Part shown: positions 4,313-63,959 of the stretch, piece by piece
Position numbering within the stretch: the stretch's first letter is position 1
Layout of the letters: each line of letters begins with the position of its first letter
Source of the DNA: Escherichia coli
Lineage (GTDB): Bacteria > Pseudomonadota > Gammaproteobacteria > Enterobacterales > Enterobacteriaceae
DNA length: 64,000 nucleotides
Reading direction: 5' to 3' (one strand)
Assembly: GCF_050320075.1 (NCBI RefSeq)
Contig: NZ_CP190022.1
Notes under the pieces: model-generated
What the model saw: only the letters and a program-made list of their open reading frames with translations
Told to the model about the DNA's origin: nothing
Database searches by the model: none
Translations under genes and position numbers: made by a program

Positions 4313-4675
4313 TGTACACGCCCCGATACTGAACTGGTCAACACTATGCTGGATAGCTCTGTCGAAACGTTAAATGCTGGCGAACGACCGGTGATACACA
4401 GTGACAGAGGTGGGCATTATCGCTGGCCAGGCTGGCTGGAAAGAGTGAATGCAGCAGGTCTTATTCGCTCAATGTCCCGTAAAGGATGTTCACCTGATAA
4501 TGCCGCATGCGAAGGCTTTTTCGGCAGACTGAAAACGGAAATGTATTATGGGCGTAAATGGTCGGGCATCACGCCAGAAAAGTTCATGCAGCAAGTGGAT
4601 GCTTACATCAGATGGTATAACGAGCGGCGTATAAAATTCTCGCTGGGTGCCGTCAGCCCCAAAATGTACCGCTAA
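4313..4675 (+). pseudogene. IS3-family transposase (OrfB) C-terminal fragment, 5'-truncated at the miniature element
   Basis: In-frame translation from 4313 (CTRPDTELVNTMLDSSVETLNAGERPVIHSDRGGHY...SMSRKGCSPDNAACEGFFGRLKTEMYYGRKW...YIRWYNERRIKFSLG) carries the DDE-domain C-terminal motifs of IS3/IS150-group transposases; the N-terminal two thirds are absent. Confidence 0.7.
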
Positions 4676-7287: not shown

Positions 7288-7790
7288 CTTCGGCTCCCGG
7301 CTGCCTGGCGGCATCCGGTCGTCAGGCCCGACTACGACAGGCAGCTGCTGGCGCACCCGCCAGTCTCCGCCGAACCCGCTGGCGCGGTTTCGGGCTGTCG
7401 CTACGGTCCGATGCGTGAAAACCCGGGCTTGCAGCGACCGTTCCGGTCGCGCCGCCCCTGTCGCGCCGTGACCTGCGCTCCCTGCACACCTGACGGTGTG
7501 TGAGGAAACTGCGCCTGATGGCGCAGCAGTCTTCCCTCCTGCCGCCACCTCTGCGGCCTGTTTCCCGCTGTGGACTTTCCGGGGGGCAGACGTAACCCCC
7601 TCCCGTTCCATCTGTCCAGGGTGAGATGCACCGGCCACAAAATTTTTAGCCATGAACCCGGCTAAAAATTTTGCGTCCGCCCCCGGACAGCTGTCCCGTG
7701 AGGCGGTAAACGGGCCCCCATCGGAAAGGTCCACTGCGGGGAGAAACCCCTGTGAAGTGGACGGCAGGAGGAGCTTTCGCTCCTCTGAAG
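7288..7790 (+). repeat. Frpo/ssi-like single-strand promoter repeat, copy 1 (upstream of ssb)
   Basis: About 500 bp GC-rich non-coding block shared near-identically with 13641-14140 and (3' half) 16717-17045; contains long imperfect palindromes; ends about 60 bp before the ssb RBS. Confidence 0.7.
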
Positions 7791-7854: not shown

Positions 7855-8382
7855 ATGAGTGCACGTGGTATCAACAAGGTCATCCTCGTCGGGCGTCTGG
7901 GCAATGATCCGGAAGTCCGTTACATCCCCAACGGGGGCGCAGTGGCAAACCTGCAGGTGGCCACGTCAGAAAGCTGGCGCGACAAACAGACGGGGGAGAT
8001 GCGGGAGCAGACGGAATGGCACCGCGTGGTGCTGTTCGGCAAGCTCGCGGAAGTGGCAGGTGAATATCTGCGCAAGGGCGCGCAGGTCTACATCGAGGGG
8101 CAACTCCGTACCCGTAGCTGGGAAGATAACGGTATCACCCGTTACGTCACTGAAATTCTTGTTAAGACCACGGGCACCATGCAGATGCTGGGGAGTGCAC
8201 CACAGCAGAACGCTCAGGCGCAACCGAAGCCTCAGCAGAATGGGCAGCCACAGAGTGCTGACGCGACGAAAAAAGGTGGCGCGAAAACGAAAGGCCGTGG
8301 ACGTAAGGCCGCGCAGCCCGAGTCTCAGCCGCAACCGCCGGAGGGGGAGGATTACGGGTTTTCAGACGATATCCCGTTCTGA
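7855..8382 (+). CDS. ssb: Plasmid single-stranded DNA-binding protein
   Basis: OB-fold SSB N-terminus ([24 protein letters not shown]), Gly/Gln/Pro-rich linker and acidic C-terminal tail DDIPF; AGGAGG RBS. Confidence 0.95.
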
Positions 8383-8736: not shown

Positions 8737-10695
8737 ATGTCAGTTACAGAGTCTAAGACAAAAACGGAGCGTAAATCCAGCCGTAAACCTGCAAAAACGC
8801 AGGAAACTGCACTGTCTGCCCTGCTGGCGCAGACGGAGGAAGTGAGCGTGCCGCTGGATTCACTGATTAAATCACCGCTGAATGTGCGCACGGTGCCGTA
8901 TTCTGCGGAGTCCGTCAGTGAACTGGCTGATTCCATTAAGGGAGTCGGCCTGCTGCAGAATCTGGTTGTTCATGCCCTGCCAGGTGACCGTTACGGTGTC
9001 GCCGCAGGTGGTCGCCGACTGGCAGCACTCAACATGCTGGCAGAGCGTGACATCATTCAGGCTGACTGGCCTGTCCGCGTGAAAATTATTCCGCAGGAGC
9101 TGGCGACGGCTGCATCGATGACCGAGAACGGTCATCGTCGGGATATGCACCCTGCCGAACAGATTGCCGGATTCCGCGCAATGGCGCAGGAAGGCAAAAC
9201 ACCTGCGCAAATCGGTGATTTGCTGGGTTATTCGCCTCGCCACGTTCAGCGAATGCTGAAACTGGCAGACCTTGCGCCTGTCATTCTCGATGCGCTGGCA
9301 GAAGACCGCATCACCACCGAACACTGTCAGGCGCTGGCGCTGGAGAACGACACCGCGCGTCAGGTGCAGGTGTTTGAAGCCGCCTGCCAGTCAGGATGGG
9401 GCGGTAAACCGGATGTGCGGGTTATCCGCAACCTGATTACCGAAAGTGAAGTGGCGGTGGCGGGGAACAGTAAATTCCGCTTCGTGGGGGCTGATGCCTT
9501 CTCGCCAGACGAACTGCGCACCGATTTGTTCAGCGATGACGGGGACGGTTATGTCGACCGCGTGGCGCTCGATGCCGCCCTGCTGGAAAAACTCCAGGCT
9601 GTCGCTGAACACCTTCGGGAAGCCGAAGGCTGGGAATGGTGCACCGGACGTATGGAGCCTGTCGGTGAGTGCCGTGAGGATGCCGGAACATACCGCAGCC
9701 TGCCGGAGCCGGAAGCGGTGCTGACGGAGGCGGAAGAAGAACGCCTGAACGAACTGATGGCACGTTACGACGCGCCGGAAAATCAGTGTGAGGAATCCGA
9801 CCTGCTGGAAGCAGAAATGAAGCTGATGCGCTGCATGGCGAAGGTCAGGGCGTGGACGCCGGAGATGCGTGCCGGAAGTGGCGTGGTGGTGTCCTGGCGT
9901 TATGGAAACGTATGTGTCCAGCGTGGTGTGCAGTTGCGCAGTGAGGATGACGTGGCTGACGACGCTGACCGCACGGAACAGGTGCAGGAGAAAGCGTCAG
10001 TGGAGGAAATCAGTCTGCCACTGCTGACGAAAATGTCTTCCGAACGCACGCTGGCAGTCCAGGCGGCACTGATGCAGCAACCGGACAAATCCCTGACACT
10101 GCTGGCATGGACGCTCTGCCTGAATGTGTTTGGCAGCGGAGCGTACAGTAAACCAGCACAAATCAGCCTGGAATGTAAACATTATTCGCTGACCAGCGAT
10201 GCGCCGTCAGGGAAGGAAGGTGCCGCATTCATGGCGCTGATTGCAGAAAAAGCCCGTCTTGCGGCCCTGTTACCGGAGGGATGGTCACGGGACATGACGA
10301 CATTCCTTTCACTCAGTCAGGAGGTGCTGTTATCCCTGCTCAGTTTCTGCACCGCGTGCAGCATCCACGGCGTTCAGACCCGCGAGTGTGGTCACACGTC
10401 ACGCAGCCCGCTGGACACGCTGGAGAGCGCCATCGGTTTTCACATGCGCGACTGGTGGCAGCCGACAAAAGCAAACTTCTTCGGACACCTGAAAAAGCCG
10501 CAGATTATCGCAGCCCTGAATGAGGCAGGATTGTCCGGTGCCGCACGGGACGCGGAGAAGATGAAGAAAGGCGATGCGGCTGAACATGCAGAGTTCCATA
10601 TGAAAGACAACCGCTGGGTGCCTGGCTGGATGTGTGCACCACGTCCACAGACGGATACCACTGAACGCACTGATAACCTGGCTGATGCCGCCTGA
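8737..10695 (+). CDS. ParB-like nuclease-domain protein of the leading region (652 aa)
   Basis: N-terminal ParB/Srx-type domain (VPLDSLIKSPLNVRTV...LLQNLVVHALPGDRYGVAAGGRRLAAL) with a helix-turn-helix segment; AAAGGAGA RBS; conserved position between ssb and psiB. Confidence 0.8.
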   Translation: MSVTESKTKTERKSSRKPAKTQETALSALLAQTEEVSVPLDSLIKSPLNVRTVPYSAESVSELADSIKGVGLLQNLVVHALPGDRYGVAAGGRRLAALNMLAERDIIQADWPVRVKIIPQELATAASMTENGHRRDMHPAEQIAGFRAMAQEGKTPAQIGDLLGYSPRHVQRMLKLADLAPVILDALAEDRITTEHCQALALENDTARQVQVFEAACQSGWGGKPDVRVIRNLITESEVAVAGNSKFRFVGADAFSPDELRTDLFSDDGDGYVDRVALDAALLEKLQAVAEHLREAEGWEWCTGRMEPVGECREDAGTYRSLPEPEAVLTEAEEERLNELMARYDAPENQCEESDLLEAEMKLMRCMAKVRAWTPEMRAGSGVVVSWRYGNVCVQRGVQLRSEDDVADDADRTEQVQEKASVEEISLPLLTKMSSERTLAVQAALMQQPDKSLTLLAWTLCLNVFGSGAYSKPAQISLECKHYSLTSDAPSGKEGAAFMALIAEKARLAALLPEGWSRDMTTFLSLSQEVLLSLLSFCTACSIHGVQTRECGHTSRSPLDTLESAIGFHMRDWWQPTKANFFGHLKKPQIIAALNEAGLSGAARDAEKMKKGDAAEHAEFHMKDNRWVPGWMCAPRPQTDTTERTDNLADAA

Positions 10696-10749: not shown

Positions 10750-11184
10750 ATGAAAACTGAACTGACCCTGAATGTCCTGCAGACCATGAACGCACAGGAA
10801 TATGAAGATATCCGTGCTGCGGGAAGCGATATGCGCCGTAATCTCACTCACGAGGTGATGCGTAAAGTGGACGCACCGGCTAACTGGATGATGAATGGCG
10901 AGTATGGCAGTGAGTTCGGGGGCTTTTTCCCCGTCCAGGTTCGTTTCACGCCAGCCCACGAACGTTTCCACCTGGCATTATGTTCGCCGGGAGACGTCTC
11001 TCAGCTCTGGATGCTGGTTCTGGTGAATGCCGGTGGTGAGCCGTTTGCGGTGGTTCAGGTACAGCGGCGGTTTGCACCGGAAGCCGTCAGCCATTCACTG
11101 GCACTGGCGGCGTCACTGGATACGCAGGGGTACAGCGTTAACGACATCATCCATATCCTGATGGCGGAAGGAGGTCAGGCATGA
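10750..11184 (+). CDS. psiB: Plasmid SOS-inhibition protein PsiB
   Basis: Translation [25 protein letters not shown]...[14 protein letters not shown] is PsiB as I remember it; AAGGGAGA RBS; track ORF starts at the adjacent GTG 10747. Confidence 0.9.
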
Positions 11185-11900
11185 GCGCACGTTCACGGGC
11201 ACTGATCCCCCTCAGCGCAGAGCAACAGGCCGCCATGCAGGCTGTGGCTGTCACCGAACAACGTCGTCGTCAGGGACGCACACTTTCAGCATGGCCTTAT
11301 GCCAGCGCTTTCTTTCGCTGCCTGAATGGCAGTCGCCGGATTTCGCTGACCGATCTCCGCTTTTTTGCCCCTGCGCTGACGAAGGAGGAATTTCATGGCA
11401 ACCGTCTCCTGTGGCTGGCTGCCGTGGATAAACTGATTGAAAGTTTTGGTGAAGTCTGTGTTCTTCCCCTGCCATCCGATGCGGGGCATCGTCTGTTCCC
11501 GTCCGTTCCTTTTCGTGAAGGTGAGCGTCGTCGTCAGAAAACCACGCTGACAGAGCAGAAATACAGCCGCCAGCGGGAACGTGAGGCAGAACGACGGGAA
11601 CTGGAATACCAGACATGTTTTGCTCAGGCGCAGATTGACCTTGCGTTTCATACTCCCGCCACGGTCGGAAGCTGGTTGTCCCGCTGGTCTGGTGTTGTTG
11701 AGGAGCATGATCTGGAAACGATTTTCTGGGGGTGGTGCGGGCGTTTTCCGTCACTGTCATCATTTGACCGGTTTTTCTGGCAGGAGGAACCACTCTGGCG
11801 GCTGATTTTTGAAGCCGGTGAGGCCGGTCGTGGTGCACCGGTACAGGTACGTGCACTTGAGCAGTGGATGATCCCGAACAAGCTGGAGAACGTAATATGA
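11181..11900 (+). CDS. psiA: Plasmid SOS-inhibition protein PsiA
   Basis: 239-aa product immediately downstream of and overlapping psiB stop (ATGA); sequence and position typical of PsiA. Confidence 0.85.
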
Positions 11901-12493
11901 TGAAATCAGACGAAAAATATCAGGTTCCCGTGTGGATGCGACCTCTGTTGCCGTTGCTCTGCAACACCGGGGGGAACGATCCGGAAGAACTGCTGAATGA
12001 TACAGCAACCACTGTCAGTGCGAATGTTGTCCGTTATGTTCTGATAGTTGCTGTGCGGTCGCAGGTTGATCTGCTGCAGATTCTGTACAGGAAAGGGCTG
12101 TTGCGCACAGAGATACCAGGTGGCTTTTCACCGGAAGAAGCGCAGGCACTCCTGGATAATCTGGTGCGCAGCCATATCAGCAGGGCGCTGTCGGGTGAGC
12201 GAATGGCAGCCCGTGACAGAAATGCCGATCTGGCCTGGATTCGACAGCAACTGGTCGATGCCGCCTGGTTTGTCCGTGCCACACTGGAGGCGCATGGGAT
12301 GGGCGTCGGAAATGAGAGTCCCCCTGCTCAGCCGGAGACAATGCCGGACATACAGACACGGGAACTGGTGATGTTGATCAAGCGACTGGCATCATCGCTG
12401 AAAGCGGTGAAACCGGACAGTTGTGTGGTGCGTGAAGCGCAGGACTGGCTGCGCGACAGAAAACTTGTGGGCATCACGGATGTTCTTCGGTGA
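11897..12493 (+). CDS. Hypothetical leading-region protein (198 aa), translationally coupled to psiA
   Basis: ATG 11897 overlaps the psiA stop (ATGA) with GGAGAA RBS inside psiA; no family recognised. Confidence 0.55.
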   Translation: MMKSDEKYQVPVWMRPLLPLLCNTGGNDPEELLNDTATTVSANVVRYVLIVAVRSQVDLLQILYRKGLLRTEIPGGFSPEEAQALLDNLVRSHISRALSGERMAARDRNADLAWIRQQLVDAAWFVRATLEAHGMGVGNESPPAQPETMPDIQTRELVMLIKRLASSLKAVKPDSCVVREAQDWLRDRKLVGITDVLR

Positions 12494-12957
12494 ACCAGTG
12501 GAGGTATGCTTGAGGGGCAGGGACATGCCGGTCATGATCGTTTCGTTCCAGGGGTGGTCTGGAGATCATGCGGCGTGTCCTCTGCTCTCGCCGGAATAAG
12601 GACGTCGCCGGCGGCTCCGCTTTTACCCGGCCATGCGGGGCATGGCCTTGTGGGTTTTCAGGTATGAAGCCATCGTGTCGTGTGCGGGCTGTGCCGTGCC
12701 TCCATCGTAGCCGGGCTTCTGTGGGCGGGATGCAAGGTAAGATGAACCGCTGCGGTCACCCGGTCCCTCCTTCCCGTCTGCCGTGATTTTCCGGTCGTTC
12801 ACCCGCTCAGATTTCGCGGTCTCACCCTCCAACTCCCGTCAGCCGTGCGCGTCGGGCTGCGGCTTTCCTTGCGCCCTTGCATCCCTGCAGGCCCGGCAAA
12901 GATGGAGGCACGGCACCGCCCGGTGTCGCAGAACATGTGACTATGGAGGATTCGGGA

Positions 12958-13458
12958 ATGTCTGTTGTTGCACCTGCTGTATACGTTGGAACCTGGCACA
13001 AATATAACTGCGGAAGCATCGCCGGCCGCTGGTTTGACCTGACCACGTTTGATGATGAACGCGATTTTTTCGCCGCCTGCCGTGCCCTTCACCAGGATGA
13101 AACCGATCCGGAACTGATGTTTCAGGATTATGAGGGATTCCCGGGGAATATGGCCTCTGAATGTCATATCAACTGGGCCTGGGTTGAAGGCTTCCGCCGG
13201 GCACGGGATGAAGGCTGCGAAGAGGCTTATCGTCTCTGGGTGGATGATACCGGTGAGACGGATTTTGACAGCTTCCGCGATGCCTGGTGGGGCGAGGCTG
13301 ACAGTGAGGAGGCTTTTGCGGTTGAGTTCGTCAGTGATACCGGCCTGCTGGCTGACGTGCCGGAGACGGTGGCGCTCTATTTTGACTATGAGGCGTATGC
13401 GCGGGATTTATTCCTGGACTCCTTCACCTTTATTGACGGTCATGTGTTCCGTCGGTGA
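12958..13458 (+). CDS. ardA: Antirestriction protein ArdA (DNA mimic inhibiting type I restriction-modification)
   Basis: Translation MSVVAPAVYVGTWHKYNCGSIAGRWFDLTTFDDERDFFAACRALHQDE...DSFTFIDGHVFRR matches ArdA; very acidic; GGAGG RBS; track ORF extends upstream to 12877. Confidence 0.9.
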   Translation: MSVVAPAVYVGTWHKYNCGSIAGRWFDLTTFDDERDFFAACRALHQDETDPELMFQDYEGFPGNMASECHINWAWVEGFRRARDEGCEEAYRLWVDDTGETDFDSFRDAWWGEADSEEAFAVEFVSDTGLLADVPETVALYFDYEAYARDLFLDSFTFIDGHVFRR

Positions 13459-13640
13459 TTTACTCCCCCGCTCCGGCGGGGGTATGGCCTGCCGGGCCGC
13501 CGGAAAACCCTGGCAGGCTTACGCCTGCCTGAAATACAGGAGGGCCGCGCCTGCGGCGCTGCCCTTCCTGCCCGTCATGGTGTGAGGCATTTTTCTGTTT
13601 TGTCGTTTCTGTTGTTCTGATGCCCGGAGGCGGGGACACC

Positions 13641-14140
13641 CTTCGGCTCCCGGCTGCCTGGCGGCATCCGGTCGTCGGCCCGACTCCGACAGGCAGCTGC
13701 TGGCGCACCCGCCAGTCTCCGCCGAACCCGCTGGCGCGGTTTCGGGCTGCCGCTACGGTCCGATGTCTGAAAAACCAGGCCTGCAGCGACCGTTCCGGTC
13801 GCGCCGCCCCTGTCGCGCCGGAAACGGCGCTCCCTGCACACCTGACGGTGTGTAAGGCCACTGCGCCTGATGGCGCAGTTGTCTGCCCTTCCGCCGCCAC
13901 CCCTGCGGCCTGTTTCCCGCTGTGGACTTTCCGGGGGCTGAAGCGGCCACAACACGTCTCAGCCGTCCAGGGGAAGATGTACCAGCCACAAAACTTTTTG
14001 CCGCAGGCGTCAAAAACTTTTGCGTCTGCCCCCGGACAACTGCCCCGTGCCGTGGCAGTCGCTGCCCCATCGGAAAGGTCCACTGCGGGGAGAAACCCCG
14101 AAGAAGTGGACGGCAGAAGGGGCTTTCGCCCCTCCGGGGA
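13641..14140 (+). repeat. Frpo/ssi-like single-strand promoter repeat, copy 2 (upstream of the 14188 ORF)
   Basis: Near-identical to copy 1 over about 500 bp; ends about 50 bp before ATG 14188. Confidence 0.7.
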
Positions 14141-14187
14141 ATAACCGGTCGGCCCGGCGACCTGATTCAGCAGAAGGAGACGTTTTC

Positions 14188-14622
14188 ATGACAGTCAGCA
14201 GCACGATTTCCGTTTTTTGCCGAGACGGGGTGTTCCGTACCGTTTACTGCCACCTGCACGGTGAGCCGACCTGGAACGGTCGCATCCTGCATACCCACTA
14301 TGCCACCGGTCAGCTGGCCGAAGCCCTGGTTGAACACGGAGATATCCGTTGCCTCGGTCCCCGTTGCGACAAACCCGCCGGGCATACGCTTCAGAACCCG
14401 GTGGACGGTGTGACGGCTTATTACGGACGTGACAGTGGTTTCCGGATGGACAGTGAAGCGCGTGAGTACCGCTCTTTCAGGGAGGCTATTGCCACTGAAA
14501 GCACAGAAGAGGTGCGCTTCCATTATGTGTTCATCGACGGCTACTGGAAGGTGATGTACCGCACGCCGGAAGGCTGGAAGATGAAAGCGCTCGCGCTGGC
14601 ACTGCGTCGCTGTCCGGAATGA
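14188..14622 (+). CDS. Hypothetical leading-region protein (144 aa), first gene after repeat copy 2
   Basis: GAAGGAGA RBS 7 nt upstream of ATG 14188; Cys/His-rich (CHLHGEP...CLGPRCDKPAGH); no family recognised. Confidence 0.6.
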   Translation: MTVSSTISVFCRDGVFRTVYCHLHGEPTWNGRILHTHYATGQLAEALVEHGDIRCLGPRCDKPAGHTLQNPVDGVTAYYGRDSGFRMDSEAREYRSFREAIATESTEEVRFHYVFIDGYWKVMYRTPEGWKMKALALALRRCPE

Positions 14623-14981: not shown

Positions 14982-15045
14982 TTAACCCTTGCCGTCTGCC
15001 TGTGCAGGCGGCAGGATACGTTCAGACATCTCACCAGGAGGAACC

Positions 15046-15984
15046 GTGAGTAAGAAGAAAACCACCACGACGCCCACGCCGCATGATGCCGCGTTCCGGT
15101 CGTTCCTGGCGAACCCCGACGTCGCCAGAGATTTTCTGGAACTGCATCTTCCGGCGGAGTACCGGCAGTTGTGCGACCTGTCCACGCTGAAGCTGGAACC
15201 CGCCACCTTTGTTGAGCCGGACCTGCATCAGTACGCCAGCGATATCCTCTGGAGTGTGAAAACCACCGGGGGTGAAGACGGCTATATTTATACGCTCATC
15301 GAGCACCAGAGCACCGAAAATCTGTACATGCCTTTCCGCATGTTACGTTACAGTGTGGCGGCGATGCAGAGACATCTGGAGCAGCACAAAACATTGCCAC
15401 TGGTGATTCCGGTGCTGTTCTATCATGGTGAGCGCAGCCCGTACCCGTACAGCATGAACTGGCTGGACTGTTTTGAGGATCCGGCGCTTGCGGCTAAAAT
15501 ATACACAAAGCCGTTTCCGCTGGTTGATATCACTGTCGTTGATGACAATGAAATCATGAACCATCGCCGGATGGCCGCACTGACGCTGCTGATGAAGCAT
15601 ATCCGCCATCGTGACATGATGGAGCTGCTGGACAAACTCCCGCAGGTCATGGTGGAAATTTCAGACGAGCAGGTGCGTGTTCTGATTCATTACATCGTTA
15701 ACGCAGGGGACTCTGTATCACCGGAATTTATGCGGGCGCTGGCTGAGCGTCTGCCGCAGCATGAGGATAAACTGATGACTATTGCCGAACGTCTTGAGCA
15801 GCAAGGAATACAGAAAGGAATACAGCAGGGAATACAGCAGGGAATACAGCAGGGAATACAGAAAGGCCGCATGGAGGAGAAGCAGGATATTGCGCGTCAG
15901 CTTCAGAAAACGGGAATGCCATCTGCACAAATCTGTCAGATCACCGGACTTTCCGAAGCTGAACTGAAGAACATCACTCACTGA
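15046..15984 (+). CDS. Rpn-family (YhgA-like, PD-(D/E)xK) recombination-promoting nuclease with C-terminal QGIQ-repeat tail
   Basis: N-terminal TPTPHDAAFRSFLANPDVARDFLELHLP...YIYTLIEHQS is the Rpn/YhgA signature; AGGAGG RBS 6 nt upstream of GTG 15046 (track ORF starts at 14989). Confidence 0.8.
   Translation: MSKKKTTTTPTPHDAAFRSFLANPDVARDFLELHLPAEYRQLCDLSTLKLEPATFVEPDLHQYASDILWSVKTTGGEDGYIYTLIEHQSTENLYMPFRMLRYSVAAMQRHLEQHKTLPLVIPVLFYHGERSPYPYSMNWLDCFEDPALAAKIYTKPFPLVDITVVDDNEIMNHRRMAALTLLMKHIRHRDMMELLDKLPQVMVEISDEQVRVLIHYIVNAGDSVSPEFMRALAERLPQHEDKLMTIAERLEQQGIQKGIQQGIQQGIQQGIQKGRMEEKQDIARQLQKTGMPSAQICQITGLSEAELKNITH
15805..15864 (+). repeat. Five tandem 12-bp units (GGAATACAG + AAA/CAG) inside rpn encoding (QGIQ)n
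   Basis: Perfect tandem 12-mers 15805-15816, 15817-15828, 15829-15840, 15841-15852, 15853-15864. Confidence 0.9.
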
Positions 15985-16611: not shown

Positions 16612-16716
16612 TTTTTTTGATTGTGGGTGTCGTGCTGTTTTCTCTGTTTTCACCTGTGCGGGAGTGGTGTGCCAGTGACCACCACATGCCATTGTTGTGC
16701 CGTCGTTTTTCTTCAG

Positions 16717-17045
16717 TCGCGCCGGATGCGGCGCTCCCTGCACACCTGACGGTGTGTAAGGCCACTGCGCCTGATGGCGCAGCTGTCTCTGCCTGTCTGC
16801 CGCCGCACTGCGGCCCGTTTTCCGCAGACGGACTTTCCGGGGGTACATACACGACCACATCCCGTTTCAGTCGTCCAGGGGAGAGATGTACCAGCCACAA
16901 AACTTTTTGCCGCAGGCGTCAAAAACTTTTGCGTCTGCCCCCGGACAACTGCCCCGTGACGTGGTGAGCGTCCCCCGTCGGAAAGGTCCACTGCGGGGAA
17001 ATCCCCGAAGACCCGGACGGCAGAAGGAGCTTCGCTCCTCCGGGA
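16717..17045 (+). repeat. Frpo/ssi-like single-strand promoter repeat, copy 3 (5'-truncated; upstream of the 17089 ORF)
   Basis: Matches the 3' 330 bp of copies 1 and 2; ends about 45 bp before the 17089 start. Confidence 0.7.
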
Positions 17046-18399: not shown

Positions 18400-18590
18400 A
18401 TCATCAAAAACTGACTCCTGGCAGGGCTGCGCCCTGCCTCTGCCGTCTGCATAAGACTATGATGCACAAAAATAACAGGCTATAATGGCCTGAAAAACGG
18501 GACAGGATGTGGGAATGTCGGACCGCGCACGCGCACTCAGACATTCCCCACCTGGTCAGGGCTTTGCCCCGACACCCCGGTAAGGAGCAG
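18400..18590 (-). other. Origin of transfer (oriT), IncI/IncP-like, with predicted nick core on the minus strand
   Basis: Immediately upstream of nikA; minus-strand reads ...GGGGAATGTCTGAGTGCGCGTGCGCGGTCCGACATTCCCACATCCTG/TCCCG with the ATCCTG nick-core motif (plus 18503-18508) and a 12-bp-arm inverted repeat (18511-18522 / 18537-18548). Confidence 0.75.
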
Positions 18591-18937: not shown

Positions 18938-21658
18938 ATGAATGCCATTATTCCGCACAAAAGACGTGACGGCAGGTCTTCCTTTGAAGACCTGATTGCG
19001 TACACGTCTGTGCGGGATGATGTGCAGGAAAATGAGCTCACAGAAGACAGCGAAATCAAGAGTGATGTCCCTCACCGCAACCGTTTCAGACGGCTTGTTG
19101 ATTATGCAACACGCCTGCGTAACGAAAAATTTGTCTCCCTGATTGATGTGATGAAAGACGGCAGTCAGTGGGTAAATTTCTATGGCGTAACCTGTTTCCA
19201 TAACTGCAATTCACTGGAAACAGCTGCTGAAGAGATGCAGTACAAGGCGGACAAAGCTGTTTTTTCCCGTAATGATACAGACCCCGTTTTCCACTACATT
19301 CTTTCCTGGCCTGCGCATGAAAGCCCGCGTCCTGAGCAGCTTTTTGACTGTGTGCGTCACACACTGAAATCTCTTGAACTCTCAAAACATCAGTACGTGG
19401 CTGCCGTTCATACGGACACGGATAATCTGCATGTGCATGTTGCCGTGAATCGTGTACATCCTGAAACTGGTTATATTAACTGGCTTTCCTGGAGCCAGGA
19501 AAAACTCAGTCGTGCATGCCGTGAACTTGAACTTAAGCACGGATTTGCGCCGGATAATGGCTGCTTTGTGCATGCACCCGGCAACCGTATTGTGCGCAAA
19601 ACAGCGCTGGTACGTGAGCGCCGTAATGCCTGGCGACGCGGGAAAAAGCAGACGTTCAGGGAATATATTGCGCAGATGTCGATTGCCGGGCTGCGTGAAG
19701 AGCCCGCACAGGACTGGTTATCTTTGCATAAACGGCTGGCCAGTGATGGTCTGTATATCACGATGCAGGAAGGGGAACTGGTGGTGAAGGATGGCTGGGA
19801 CAGAGCGCGGGAAGGTGTTGCACTCAGTTCGTTCGGACCGTCATGGACAGCTGAAAAACTGGGGCGGAAACTGGGGGAATATCAGCCTGTACCGACAGAT
19901 ATTTTCAGTCAGGTGGGGACACCCGGTCGTTATGATCCGGAAGCCATAAACGTGGATATCCGGCCGGAAAAAGTGGCAGAAACGGAGAGTCTGAAACAGT
20001 ACGCCTGTCGTCACTTTGCTGAACGCTTACCGGAAATGGCGCGAAATGGTGAACTGAAAAGTTGCCTGGCTGTACACCGTACTCTGGCAGAGGCGGGATT
20101 ATGGATGGGGATTCAGCACGGGCATCTGGTACTGCATGATGGATTTGATAAACAACAGACACCAGTACGTGCAGACAGTGTGTGGCCGTTAATGACGCTG
20201 GATTATATGCAGGATCTGGATGGTGGATGGCACTCTGTACCGAAGGATATTTTTACTCAGGTTATACCCGAAGAACGATTCCGGGGACACAGTATTGGCA
20301 CTCAGGCTGTCAGCGATTACGAATGGTATCGCATGAGGATGGGCACTGGTCCACAGGGTGCCATAAAGCGTGAACTGTTTTCCGATAAGGAAAGTCTGTG
20401 GGGATACGCTCTTATTCAGTGCAGGAGCCAGATTGAAGAGATGATAGCTGGCGGGGATTTCAGCTGGCAGGCATGTCATGAGATGTTTGCGCGTAAAGGG
20501 CTTATGCTGCAGAAACAGCATCATGGTCTCGTGATTGTGGATGCGTTTAATCATGAACTGACACCGGTGAAGGCCAGCAGTATCCACCCGGATTTGACGT
20601 TATCCCGGGCCGAGCCTCAGGCCGGGCCATTTGAAATTGCGGCTGCAGATATTTTCGAACGGGTGAAGCCTGAATGTCGCTACAATCCGGAACTTGCTGC
20701 CAGTGATGAAGTGGAGCCCGGCTTCCGGCGCGATCCTGAGCTGCGTCGTGAGCGCCGTGAAGCCCGTGCAGCTGCGCGGGAAGATTTGCGTGCGCGTTAT
20801 CTTGCATGGAAGGAACACTGGCGTAAACCCGATTTACGTTACGGCGAACGGTTGCGGGAAATTCATGCTGCCTGCCGTCGTCGCAAGGCTCATATCCGCG
20901 TGCAGTTCCGGGATCCACAATTGCGTAAACTGCATTACCATATTGCAGAAGTGCAACGTATGCAGGCGCTGATCAGACTGAAGGAAAATGTCAGGGAAGA
21001 GCGACTGGCGCTGATGGCGGAGGGTAAGTGGTATCCGTTGTCCTACCGGCAGTGGGTGGAACAACAGGCGGCGCAAGGCGACAGAGCTGCAGTGTCACAG
21101 CTCCGAGGCTGGGATTATCGCGATCGTCGCTCGCGTAATAAGGATAAAAGACGCACAACTAATGCTGATCGTTGTGTCGTTCTCTGCGAACCCGGAGGAA
21201 CGCCACTTTTTAATAATGTTGCAAAACTTGAAGCTCGTCTTCAGAAAAATGGAAGTGTTCATTTCAGGGATACGCGGACAGGAAAAAATGTCTGTACGGA
21301 TTACGGAGATCGGGTTGTGTTCTACCATCACACGGACCGAAATGAACTGGCAGAGAAGCTTGATTTAATTGCGCCAGTTCTGTTCAGCCGCAACGGAAAG
21401 CTTGGTTTTGAGCCGGAAGGTTCATACCAGCAGTTTAATGATGTGTTTGCAGAAATGGTGGCCTGGCACAATGCAGCGGGAATAACCGGAAACGGACACT
21501 TCACCATTACTCGTCCGGACGTGGATTTGCACCGTCAACGCAGTGAGCAGTATTACCGGGAATATATCAGACAGCAGACCCGTTTATCGGAGAGCCATGA
21601 TGATAATTATACGTTACGGCAGGAGAAAACATGGGAGCCACCATCACCTGGAATGTAA
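18938..21658 (+). CDS. nikB: Relaxase NikB (MOBP family)
   Basis: 906-aa product with the MOBP metal-binding motif HTDTDNLHVHVAVNRVH near the N-terminus; directly downstream of nikA. Confidence 0.9.
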   Translation: MNAIIPHKRRDGRSSFEDLIAYTSVRDDVQENELTEDSEIKSDVPHRNRFRRLVDYATRLRNEKFVSLIDVMKDGSQWVNFYGVTCFHNCNSLETAAEEMQYKADKAVFSRNDTDPVFHYILSWPAHESPRPEQLFDCVRHTLKSLELSKHQYVAAVHTDTDNLHVHVAVNRVHPETGYINWLSWSQEKLSRACRELELKHGFAPDNGCFVHAPGNRIVRKTALVRERRNAWRRGKKQTFREYIAQMSIAGLREEPAQDWLSLHKRLASDGLYITMQEGELVVKDGWDRAREGVALSSFGPSWTAEKLGRKLGEYQPVPTDIFSQVGTPGRYDPEAINVDIRPEKVAETESLKQYACRHFAERLPEMARNGELKSCLAVHRTLAEAGLWMGIQHGHLVLHDGFDKQQTPVRADSVWPLMTLDYMQDLDGGWHSVPKDIFTQVIPEERFRGHSIGTQAVSDYEWYRMRMGTGPQGAIKRELFSDKESLWGYALIQCRSQIEEMIAGGDFSWQACHEMFARKGLMLQKQHHGLVIVDAFNHELTPVKASSIHPDLTLSRAEPQAGPFEIAAADIFERVKPECRYNPELAASDEVEPGFRRDPELRRERREARAAAREDLRARYLAWKEHWRKPDLRYGERLREIHAACRRRKAHIRVQFRDPQLRKLHYHIAEVQRMQALIRLKENVREERLALMAEGKWYPLSYRQWVEQQAAQGDRAAVSQLRGWDYRDRRSRNKDKRRTTNADRCVVLCEPGGTPLFNNVAKLEARLQKNGSVHFRDTRTGKNVCTDYGDRVVFYHHTDRNELAEKLDLIAPVLFSRNGKLGFEPEGSYQQFNDVFAEMVAWHNAAGITGNGHFTITRPDVDLHRQRSEQYYREYIRQQTRLSESHDDNYTLRQEKTWEPPSPGM

Positions 21659-31608: not shown

Positions 31609-31902
31609 TTGAGGCTGTATGCTGAAAGCGTTTTGTGGACGGCATGCAGCAGAAAGCCCCAGGCGATTTTTTTATCAATCAACCCAGGGCCCACTGTAAT
31701 GCCTCAACAACATTATAGTAGCCCGATGACGGCCGAAAGGCAATGGAGGGGCTGCGATGCCACAACGAACGTTTTTAATAATGTTAATCGTCGTCTGTGT
31801 GACGATACTGTGTTTTGTCTGGATGGTGAGGGATTCGCTTTGCGGATTTCGTATCGAGCAGGGAAATACAGTGCTTGTGGCAACGTTAGCCTACGAAGTT
31901 AA
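31609..31902 (+). CDS. pndC: Overlapping translational-coupling reading frame of the hok-family module (mok/PndC-like)
   Basis: 97-codon ORF overlapping the toxin ORF in another frame, as in hok/mok and pndA/pndC. Confidence 0.55.
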   Translation: MRLYAESVLWTACSRKPQAIFLSINPGPTVMPQQHYSSPMTAERQWRGCDATTNVFNNVNRRLCDDTVFCLDGEGFALRISYRAGKYSACGNVSLRS

Positions 31903-31909
31903 ACGTTAA
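31757..31909 (+). CDS. pndA: Hok/Gef-family type I membrane toxin (50 aa, MPQRTFLIMLIVVCVTILCFVWMVRDSLCGFRIEQGNTVLVATLAYEVKR)
   Basis: Not in the 60-aa track; found by reading: GGAGGGG RBS, ATG 31757, TM helix followed by the conserved hok-family C-terminal segment; downstream GGCGGCAGG-AAAT-CTGCCGCC hairpin. Confidence 0.85.
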   Translation: MPQRTFLIMLIVVCVTILCFVWMVRDSLCGFRIEQGNTVLVATLAYEVKR

Positions 31910-62819: not shown

Positions 62820-63523
62820 GTGAATATCTCCGAAGTGCGGAAAACGGAATCAGGGAGGAGGGTTAGTGCATACAGTGATGCGCAGAGAAACGGGGCGAAC
62901 GGCAGTGCCTGCTGATGTCTGTGACGGCAGAAGAGGAGGATAAACAGAAATGCCCCGGAAGCTGCGGCGGTGATTAGCAGCGGCGTGTGTTGTGGCTGTG
63001 TCCACATTGCAATTCCTGCTATCAGGAATACATCACCAAGGCCGAGTGCTTCTGTTCCTTTTGCCGTTATGAAAAACTGCCGTAGCAGGTATGTCATGCC
63101 GAACCAGAGTGATGCGTTGAGGAGGCTGTATGTGAGCTCCTCCAGGCTGTACCTGAACGCTGCCCCCAGAACAATCAGTGAAAGCGTGAATATCCGGGGA
63201 AGCCGACAGACGGCGATGTCCGTCAGCGTCATTACAGTTAATAATCCCGTCAGAATGGAAAGGAATAACAGCCCCGTGGCTTCAACACCATATGCGCCGT
63301 TGAGGCTGACACTCACTATGGCCAGAAGGCAACACACGTACACCACCGGCCTGGGCGGCCGGGTGTCGTGTACTGCTGACAGGTAGAGAGCGGCGGTGAT
63401 GTATGCAAGATAAAGAATAACCGCCAGGATGATGATTATTATTGTCATGCTCAGTAATGCGCTCACCGTCACCTCGTATTTATTAATATTGTCTGAAATA
63501 CCGGTTGTGGATTTTTCGGGCAT
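62816..63523 (-). CDS. pilU: Prepilin peptidase PilU (A24 family)
   Basis: Polytopic membrane protein with prepilin-peptidase-like organisation; immediately upstream of pilV. Confidence 0.7.
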   Translation of the reverse strand: MPEKSTTGISDNINKYEVTVSALLSMTIIIIILAVILYLAYITAALYLSAVHDTRPPRPVVYVCCLLAIVSVSLNGAYGVEATGLLFLSILTGLLTVMTLTDIAVCRLPRIFTLSLIVLGAAFRYSLEELTYSLLNASLWFGMTYLLRQFFITAKGTEALGLGDVFLIAGIAMWTQPQHTPLLITAAASGAFLFILLFCRHRHQQALPFAPFLCASLYALTLLPDSVFRTSEIFT

Positions 63524-63959
63524 ATATCATGCGCCGGGCTGTGTTATTTTTGCTGAAACCGGCGTTATAGCTGCCCAGGCATTCCCAGTTAACGCCGCAG
63601 CGTTGAAAATGGCGGGCCAGTATCCAGGCACCGGTATGAATATTCAGGCAGGGCTTTTTAAGCAGTTCATCCTTGTTTTTAATGACGCCCAGTTTTTTCA
63701 GTTCAGGAATATGCACTGAATTAATCTGCATTATTCCGTAATCCGTACTGATGATTTTTCCGGATTTGTTTTTATTGTGATTTATCGCAGTGGCGACCAG
63801 GCCGCTTTCCTGCTGTGCAATGGTTTTCAGAAGCTCAGGGGCAATCAGGTAACGTTTTCCGGCCTGAATAAAACAGGAATCGAGATGATTATTATTCATC
63901 ACAGATGCGATTGATGTGTTACTGAATAAAAGCAGGACAGAGAGATATAACCATTTCAT
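63483..63959 (-). CDS. pilT: Lytic transglycosylase PilT (Slt-domain)
   Basis: Signal peptide plus transglycosylase motif region (ESGLVATAINHNKN...DYGIMQINS...AGAWIL...YNAG). Confidence 0.75.
   Translation of the reverse strand: MKWLYLSVLLLFSNTSIASVMNNNHLDSCFIQAGKRYLIAPELLKTIAQQESGLVATAINHNKNKSGKIISTDYGIMQINSVHIPELKKLGVIKNKDELLKKPCLNIHTGAWILARHFQRCGVNWECLGSYNAGFSKNNTARRMIYARKIHNRYFRQY

Follow-up and report, generated by a model that had tools for sequence, protein, structure and literature searches.

The 64,000-nucleotide stretch of Escherichia coli DNA analysed here (contig NZ_CP190022.1, hereafter the window) contains, at positions 11897-12493 of the + strand, an open reading frame (ORF) of 198 codons plus stop (597 nt) that a preliminary description had singled out as an unknown gene translationally coupled to psiA. 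This ORF is a genuine gene and not a chance reading frame. It lies directly 3′ of psiA (11181-11900, +; Pfam PsiA, 1.4e-41; NCBIfam, 4.5e-113), which itself follows the SOS inhibitor gene psiB (10750-11184, +; Pfam PsiB, 2.4e-60; NCBIfam equivalog), and 5′ of the antirestriction gene ardA (12958-13458, +; Pfam ArdA, 5.9e-30), which belongs to the next transcription unit; the assignments of psiB and ardA are also supported by RefSeq coordinates in relatives. The same placement, between psiA and ardA, is that of the I-complex YgaA orthologues, and the start and length given by the ORF list recur in the RefSeq coding sequences of most of the relatives that we fetched. The encoded protein begins MMKSDEKYQ and ends DVLR, and no paralogue of the gene is present in the window.

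The gene is already known, as ygaA (Hp15, O3K_25907 in the plasmid pESBL), is uncharacterised, and is not a discovery. It falls into a protein cluster (P0002) of 2,438 members that is 94% identical to the query, the name YgaA coming from the source P0060. In the IncI1 plasmid pESBL, YgaA/Hp15 is encoded at 63259-63855, directly after psiA, and was covered by a published transposon-insertion screen (PMC4288162). The pESBL protein and the RefSeq hypothetical proteins WP_045146526 and WP_000977995 share 91-99% identity with the protein of the window, and the genes have the same length of 597 nt; the pESBL-type gene has the identical 4-nt overlap with psiA and a gap to ardA of roughly 461-464 nt, and nothing substantial differs. 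No function could be assigned to it from our searches. No paper characterising YgaA was found in the literature searched, nor one characterising the phage N15 proteins gp43 and gp45, to which we return below.

Translational coupling to psiA is borne out by the coordinates. The ATG of ygaA (11897-11899) overlaps the TGA of psiA (11898-11900) in the tetranucleotide ATGA, a second in-frame ATG follows at 11900, and a GGAG Shine-Dalgarno sequence, read from the sequence, is located within psiA, as the preliminary description had it (11885-11888, +), at a spacing of 8 nt from the first ATG. The TGA of psiB (11182-11184) and the ATG of psiA at 11181 form an ATGA overlap likewise and, given that both junctions are joined in this way, psiB, psiA and ygaA constitute a coupled chain of three cistrons. 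Six of the seven related plasmid loci that we fetched (L001, L009-L012 and L014, of types IncK2/Z, IncI1/B/O and IncI-gamma/K1) keep both the 4-nt overlap and the 597-nt length; the exception, L013 (NZ_CP024887.1, 886-2152), has an extended psiA call, a frameshift in psiA and a ygaA shortened by a premature stop codon. In a scan of 11000-14400, the + strand showed neither promoter-like nor terminator-like sites between psiA and the stop codon of ygaA. The co-expression with psiB and psiA that had been proposed agrees with the work of Benz and Hall, who place ygaA in the distal part of the ssi3 operon (bioRxiv 10.1101/2022.07.06.498992).

The whole YgaA protein has no match in Pfam (E up to 1), NCBIfam or the PDB. 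A word-indexed search returned close relatives only, while an exhaustive HMMER search returned 247 relatives and, mapping these onto YgaA, we observed that the protein consists of three modules, each of which occurs independently of the others. The N module (residues 1-72; 11897-12112, +) is a three-helix domain, found alone or as the N-terminus of proteins of 70-240 residues. The M module (residues 73-135; 12113-12301, +) is a helical hairpin with the motif PGGFxxEEA...LVRSHISxALSGExM...DLxWI...AAWFVxAxLEA, and forms the middle or the C-terminus of proteins of 100-585 residues, several of which also contain Ead_Ea22 and/or DUF551 domains. The C module (residues 151-198; 12347-12490, +) is basic (isoelectric point, pI, 9.6) and helical, and is found at C-termini: those of PHROG families 660, 924 and 8171, and that of N15 gp45. 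One relative, P0097, fuses N directly to C without M, and the complete order N-M-C is limited to the close I-complex group. PHROG matches are confined to the C-terminus of YgaA and are all of unknown function, and the N module has no family in Pfam, NCBIfam, PHROGs or the PDB. The earlier statement that the protein has no recognisable family is correct only for curated libraries, the three modules being related to N15 gp43, to N15 gp45 and to the Ea22/DUF551 proteins of Shiga toxin (Stx) phages; none of the homology and fold searches assigned YgaA to a leading-region family of established function. An internal duplication, with the N module related to the M module, was considered and rejected (hhalign probability 0.9% over 7 columns).

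The N module is the part with the clearest signature. Over about 70 residues and three helices it carries the motif PxWM...NTGGN...E..L.ND...N..R...Q, in which P11, W13, M14, N23, T24, G25, G26, N27, E30, L32, D35, N43, R46, Q56 and L60 are invariant or nearly so (P11, W13, M14, T24, G25, G26, L32, N43 and L60 being those called invariant), and this polar motif is kept across relatives that are only 35-60% identical. For structure prediction the modules were modelled separately, N alone and M together with C, because MAFFT had in two attempts paired GGN(D)xEE in the N module with GGF(S)xEE in the M module. The model of the N module is confident (predicted local distance difference test score, pLDDT, 89; predicted template modelling score 0.76) and places most of the invariant polar residues in two long loops between its three helices, which suggests a conserved binding surface; we regard these modelled loops as a putative one. 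Searches with this model gave no structural neighbour apart from one nameless viral protein of 70 residues in BFVD. The M+C model is of moderate confidence (pLDDT 73) and is a helical bundle. As a whole, YgaA is a 22-kDa, soluble, all-helical and neutral protein (pI 6.75; 25 acidic and 25 basic residues; grand average of hydropathy, GRAVY, -0.16) that has neither an enzyme motif nor the acidic character of a DNA mimic. In the Pfam scan it matched neither ArdA, Ead_Ea22 (PF13935; E up to 1) nor DUF551 (PF04448), the last of which follows the M module in phage relatives, and its pI contrasts with that of 4.13 for the neighbouring ArdA, so that it does not resemble an ArdA- or Ocr-type mimic.

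That ygaA is maintained as a coding sequence is evident from its distribution and from its substitution pattern. Searching PLSDB by tblastn, we found it at full length (coverage of 80% or more) in 1,692 plasmid records, most at 90-99% identity, and these are nearly all conjugative Enterobacteriaceae plasmids of types IncI1, I-gamma, K, B/O and Z; among the matches listed, each has psiA as its neighbour. The mean pairwise ratio of nonsynonymous to synonymous substitution (dN/dS) is 0.33 in frame and 2.4 and 1.35 in the other two frames; a low value in frame against values above 1 off frame indicates that ygaA is under purifying selection. Broken down by part, the ratio is 0.21 for the N module, 0.24 for the C module and 0.58 for the M module, with the linker likewise relaxed. 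One could read the relaxation of the M module and the linker, together with the mosaic build of the protein, the many truncated alleles and the dispensability of the gene (PMC4288162), as the marks of a passenger, that is, a phage-derived recombinational mosaic that is translated but nearly or wholly without function, and in slow decay. We consider this improbable, since a decaying passenger would hardly be kept at full length in about 1,700 plasmids of the IncI1, I-gamma, K, B/O and Z types, with dN/dS well under 1 in the N and C modules, with its coupling signals conserved and with the invariant polar motif of the N module retained at such low overall identity. Were YgaA inert after all, it would be a documented case of phage-derived mosaic cargo in a leading region. 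The variant alleles that we saw (P0028, P0035, P0044) include a form of 196 residues that diverges after residue 144 (32 contigs) and a form of 156 residues (187 members); some of the truncated, frameshifted or recombinant alleles may be sequencing errors.

Relatives of the three modules are found in temperate phages. The N-terminus of N15 gp43 resembles the N module (57% identity) and the C-terminus of N15 gp45 the C module (45% identity). The two N15 genes belong to the cro-Q operon, as early accessory genes of unknown function. Unlike in YgaA, N and C reside in N15 in separate genes with other partner sequences, with no M module and no link to psiA. The N+C fusion P0097 is encoded in an N15-like element, where its gene follows an exonuclease/Lar gene and precedes orphan methyltransferase genes; a further N-module gene belongs to a Rac-like or lambdoid prophage, in whose nin-type region it comes after lambda-P-type replication genes. 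The M module, of about 63 residues, is shared at 52-59% identity with Ea22- or DUF551-annotated proteins of the lambdoid exo-xis region in 115 phage records, mostly of Stx-converting phages. YgaA lacks the Ead_Ea22 coiled-coil and DUF551, and the phage proteins lack the N and C modules; Ea22 proteins form oligomers. The Stx-phage ea22 genes are among the earliest expressed after DNA entry, and their products are mosaic, with a host target that is not known; Stx Ea22 variants have a segment of 63 residues that is missing from lambda Ea22 (PMC10834534). The M module is, by our inference, probably this segment.

In 39 viral loci from IMG/VR, the N module adjoins lambda O/P-type replication genes, RecT, a helicase, a MuB-like ATPase or an integrase, and the neighbours common to many of these loci are confined to the N15-like subgroup. 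These neighbours place the module in early regions without pointing to a specific partner. An HTH_ParB protein, a neighbour in locus L007, was considered as a partner and set aside, being limited to three near-identical loci. On the evidence of sequence, the N-module family appears to occur both in the leading regions of I-complex plasmids and in temperate phages of N15-like, lambdoid and Mu-like types, there in early accessory regions. A few small metagenome contigs carry divergent N-module genes and are too short for context.

Several minor observations concern the same modules. An M module (59% identity) is also present in a 108-codon ORF of the IncI2 plasmid pHZ001 (L003, 5863-6189). About 2 kb separate this ORF from the intergenic region between mobC and the relaxase gene and, being oriented away from there, it could not be transcribed from the incoming strand as ygaA could. 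About 520 records match the YgaA query at below 60% identity, most among the matches listed being plasmids of IncI2 size. The N-module protein P0132 has a C-terminal segment (…QQDDTYIGGELAAAAISYIEPMEAE…W…) that is also the C-terminus of a separate gene in L040 (4273-5004), located immediately upstream of the N-module gene there; the segment has no Pfam match, and its occurrence in two settings is further evidence of module shuffling.

Leading regions of F and of some related plasmids have a hok-family gene after psiA instead of ygaA. This substitution bears on the idea that YgaA works in partnership with PsiA and/or PsiB, in SOS suppression or in the handling of RecA or SSB on the incoming strand. 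Such a partnership would explain why ygaA is translationally locked to psiA, and it finds support in the preservation of the psiB-psiA-ygaA chain in six of the seven relatives, in the encoding of SSB by the same operon, in PsiA having no established role, and in the PLSDB matches to the N module (1,714 records), where among the matches listed all lie beside psiA except one in an N15-like phage-plasmid. None of the 39 viral loci, by contrast, has a PsiA or PsiB relative near the N module, a hok-family gene stands in place of ygaA in those related leading regions, and modules that travel independently of each other fit poorly with a fixed partnership. On balance we judge it rather unlikely. Because the phage homologues do not lie beside psiA or psiB relatives, the phage contexts in turn say nothing about the target of YgaA.

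The region from 5 to 22 kb of the window is the leading region of an I-complex conjugative plasmid, with its best matches in IncK2/Z and IncI1/B/O plasmids and a ygaA allele that is IncK2/Z-like. The order on the + strand is parM/stbB, ssb (7855-8382), a ParB-like gene of 652 codons (8737-10695), psiB, psiA, ygaA and ardA, and beyond ardA an ORF of 144 codons, an Rpn-family gene, a DUF4942 gene, nikA (at 18507) and the relaxase gene nikB (at 18938). All leading-region genes thus share the + strand with nikA and nikB, and oriT is located immediately 5′ of nikA, near 18.4 kb; it follows that the minus strand is both the transferred strand and the template strand. The ygaA gene lies about 6 kb upstream of nikA on the same strand, the orientation of leading-region genes in the sense of the anti-defence islands (PMC11541004) and, with the minus strand transferred from oriT, it would enter the recipient about 6 kb behind the nick.

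Upstream of ssb is a dispersed repeat (7288-7785, assigned to the minus strand; repeat families D1-D5), further copies of which precede the 144-codon ORF (13641-14134) and the DUF4942 gene (16716-16964); segments of these three direct repeats are 83-97% identical. By position and by comparison with the literature, rather than by alignment with Frpo, the three repeats fit class-1 promoters of the ssi1-3/Frpo type, and the copy at 7288-7785 is likely a class-1 single-strand promoter that drives ssb, the parB-like gene, psiB, psiA and ygaA. In pESBL, six single-stranded DNA (ssDNA) promoters raise the expression of the leading-region operons by as much as about 500-fold within 15 min, an induction after transfer that was published at the level of operons (PMC12672017).

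From these observations, we tentatively favour a reading, which we rate a little below an even chance, in which YgaA is a non-essential early establishment protein that is made in the recipient and acts by binding a protein target. In such a scheme ygaA would be the last cistron of an early operon (ssb, a DUF905 gene, the parB-like gene, psiB, psiA and ygaA in IncK/I-complex plasmids). During conjugation the minus strand would enter the recipient first, beginning at oriT, and the ssi/Frpo-type hairpin promoter upstream of ssb would be transcribed from the single strand. Ribosomes ending psiA would then restart at the overlapping ATGA, so that YgaA would be produced along with PsiB and PsiA in the first minutes after entry. 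YgaA may bind a protein of the recipient cell, or another early plasmid protein, and so ease establishment, the N module with its invariant polar loops serving as the recognition part and the helices of M and C as scaffold or oligomerisation parts; the gene would be accessory and not essential. We infer the early expression of the ygaA cistron, the protein binding and the role in establishment or anti-defence from the data above. PsiB and ArdA are like YgaA in region, in orientation on the transferred strand, in small size and probably in belonging to the class of entry-induced genes; they are unlike it in that there is no relation of sequence or fold, in that YgaA is neutral and not an acidic DNA mimic, and in that YgaA is without demonstrated activity. 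In pED208, PsiA and PsiB are reported to pass through the type IV secretion system themselves.

We stress that several observations weigh against an establishment role. The dN/dS of ygaA exceeds that of its neighbours (psiB 0.13, psiA 0.12, ardA 0.19), i.e. the protein evolves faster; truncated or frameshifted alleles are common in databases; and no PsiA or PsiB relative accompanies the N module in the 39 phage loci. The fold searches yielded either nothing or, for M+C, thousands of matches to generic helical bundles. In the pESBL screen, YgaA was classed as not required for replication, maintenance or transfer, with a probability of 1.00 (PMC4288162), and loss-of-function mutations and deletions of the ygaA operon are selected in some hosts.

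A narrower and more doubtful version is that YgaA is an anti-defence or host-modulating factor whose N module represents a new small domain family targeting a conserved protein of the recipient cell. If it holds, the shared domain would link the leading regions of plasmids with the early regions of phages.

Another alternative is that YgaA modulates the behaviour of its own plasmid after entry (how fast it transfers, for example, or what the leading operon costs), and not the defences of the host. Mutants with a disrupted ssi3 operon, polar on ygaA, transfer faster, in one host only (bioRxiv 10.1101/2022.07.06.498992), according to a 2026 preprint, deletions of the psiA/psiB region arose in parallel in IncI1 plasmids under evolution, and Ea22 proteins, which contain the M module, bias the developmental decision of phages (PMC10834534). 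The mutants, however, lost several genes at once, so no effect was ascribed to ygaA; Pfam and the fold searches detected no DNA-binding or regulator fold, and ygaA insertions were not classed as required for transfer in the pESBL screen (PMC4288162). We accordingly give this alternative little credence.

IncI1, IncK and IncB/O plasmids are major carriers of extended-spectrum β-lactamase genes, and the genes expressed in the first minutes after entry help to decide the success of plasmid transfer. In ygaA we have a conserved early gene without an assigned function that belongs to the same coupled unit as the SOS inhibitor gene psiB. The gene had already been catalogued and the promoter hairpin of ardA (see below) already explained; what the analysis adds is the module dissection, together with the phage relatives. 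The dissection offers a starting point, with three separable parts, a set of invariant residues and relatives in N15 gp43, N15 gp45 and Ea22 variants.

Between ygaA and ardA lies a gap of 464 nt (12494-12957), which had been described as a long structured non-coding region. The structure is strong indeed: folded as minus-strand ssDNA the gap reaches -111.8 kcal/mol (z = -6.1), as RNA z = -4.0, and its sequence is 93% conserved across I-complex plasmids. It is also already explained, as the homologue of a published ardA promoter (PMC12672017). The first hairpin 3′ of ygaA (12514-12588, +) has an RNA fold of -45 kcal/mol (z -4.6). It is followed by a terminator-like element (12629-12659, +), an 8-bp perfect GC-rich stem GGCCATGC/GCATGGCC with the loop GGG and then TTGTGGGTTTTC, which folds at -18.5 kcal/mol (z -2.3) and is almost unchanged across 7 plasmids, the T-rich tail having one substitution. 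This element is a possible 3′ end of the ygaA-containing transcript, although the consensus terminator scan did not call it. Upstream of ardA is a long imperfect hairpin of about 240 nt (12685-12922, minus strand; inverted repeat 12685-12737 versus 12875-12922; ssDNA z -6.1). In pESBL, the homologous hairpin 5′ of ardA has been defined as an ssDNA promoter of class 2, its start site having been mapped (PMC12672017), and by analogy the hairpin of the window is probably the class-2 single-strand promoter of ardA. In a search of this hairpin for exact -35 and -10 hexamers, TTGCAT and TACGAT turned up on the minus strand at a spacing of 20 nt, which is 15 nt in IncI-gamma alleles, and on account of this difference in spacing we make no promoter claim for the pair. 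The arms of the hairpin (12700-12740 and 12875-12915; alignment A5, columns 214-245 and 385-415) differ between IncK/B/O-type and IncI-gamma-type alleles, by a 5-nt deletion in one arm and by a 3-4-nt insertion with an AAAG-to-TTTT change in the other, and these changes alter the bubble around the -10-like TACGAT/TAAGAT of the minus strand. An Rfam scan of 8-20 kb returned nothing relevant.

As to the position that a hok-family killer occupies in some related leading regions, it is empty here, as had been noted. No hok-family ORF lies between psiA and the 144-codon ORF, and tblastn with six family members gave nothing significant in 11.9-14.2 kb. The query for PndA matched, at 92% identity, the only hok-family hit of these six queries in the window, pndA (31757-31906, +), in the transfer region. 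Its position in the slot after psiA might suggest that YgaA replaces the hok-type killer of F-like plasmids as a toxin or addiction module, but this idea is close to refuted. YgaA has no similarity to Hok, Gef, PndA or SrnB; it is not a hydrophobic Hok/Gef peptide (PF01848) of about 50 residues, and its GRAVY value argues against a membrane peptide of that small, hydrophobic kind; Rfam gave no antisense RNA family in 8-20 kb; the plasmid has a pndA of its own; and ygaA insertions are tolerated (PMC4288162).

Some RefSeq records give the 144-codon ORF (14188-14622, +), which follows an ssi-type repeat, the name "post-segregation killing protein PndC". It shows no hok-family similarity and matches phrog_1987 and phrog_23089, both of unknown function; the label seems to be a misannotation that was inherited. 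For this ORF (Hp16), the pESBL screen gave a probability of 0.24 for a second category, which is unusual among its neighbours (PMC4288162). At the distal edge of the leading region, upstream of parM, a fragment of an integrase-core (rve) transposase ORF (4346-4675, +) suggests a remnant of an insertion sequence; in related plasmids, klcA-type antirestriction and DUF1380 genes are found at the same edge. Within the leading region, the Rpn-family gene (14989-15984, +; recombination-promoting nuclease/transposase-like) carries a short tandem peptide repeat, QGIQKGIQQGIQQGIQQGIQKG, near the C-terminus of its product.

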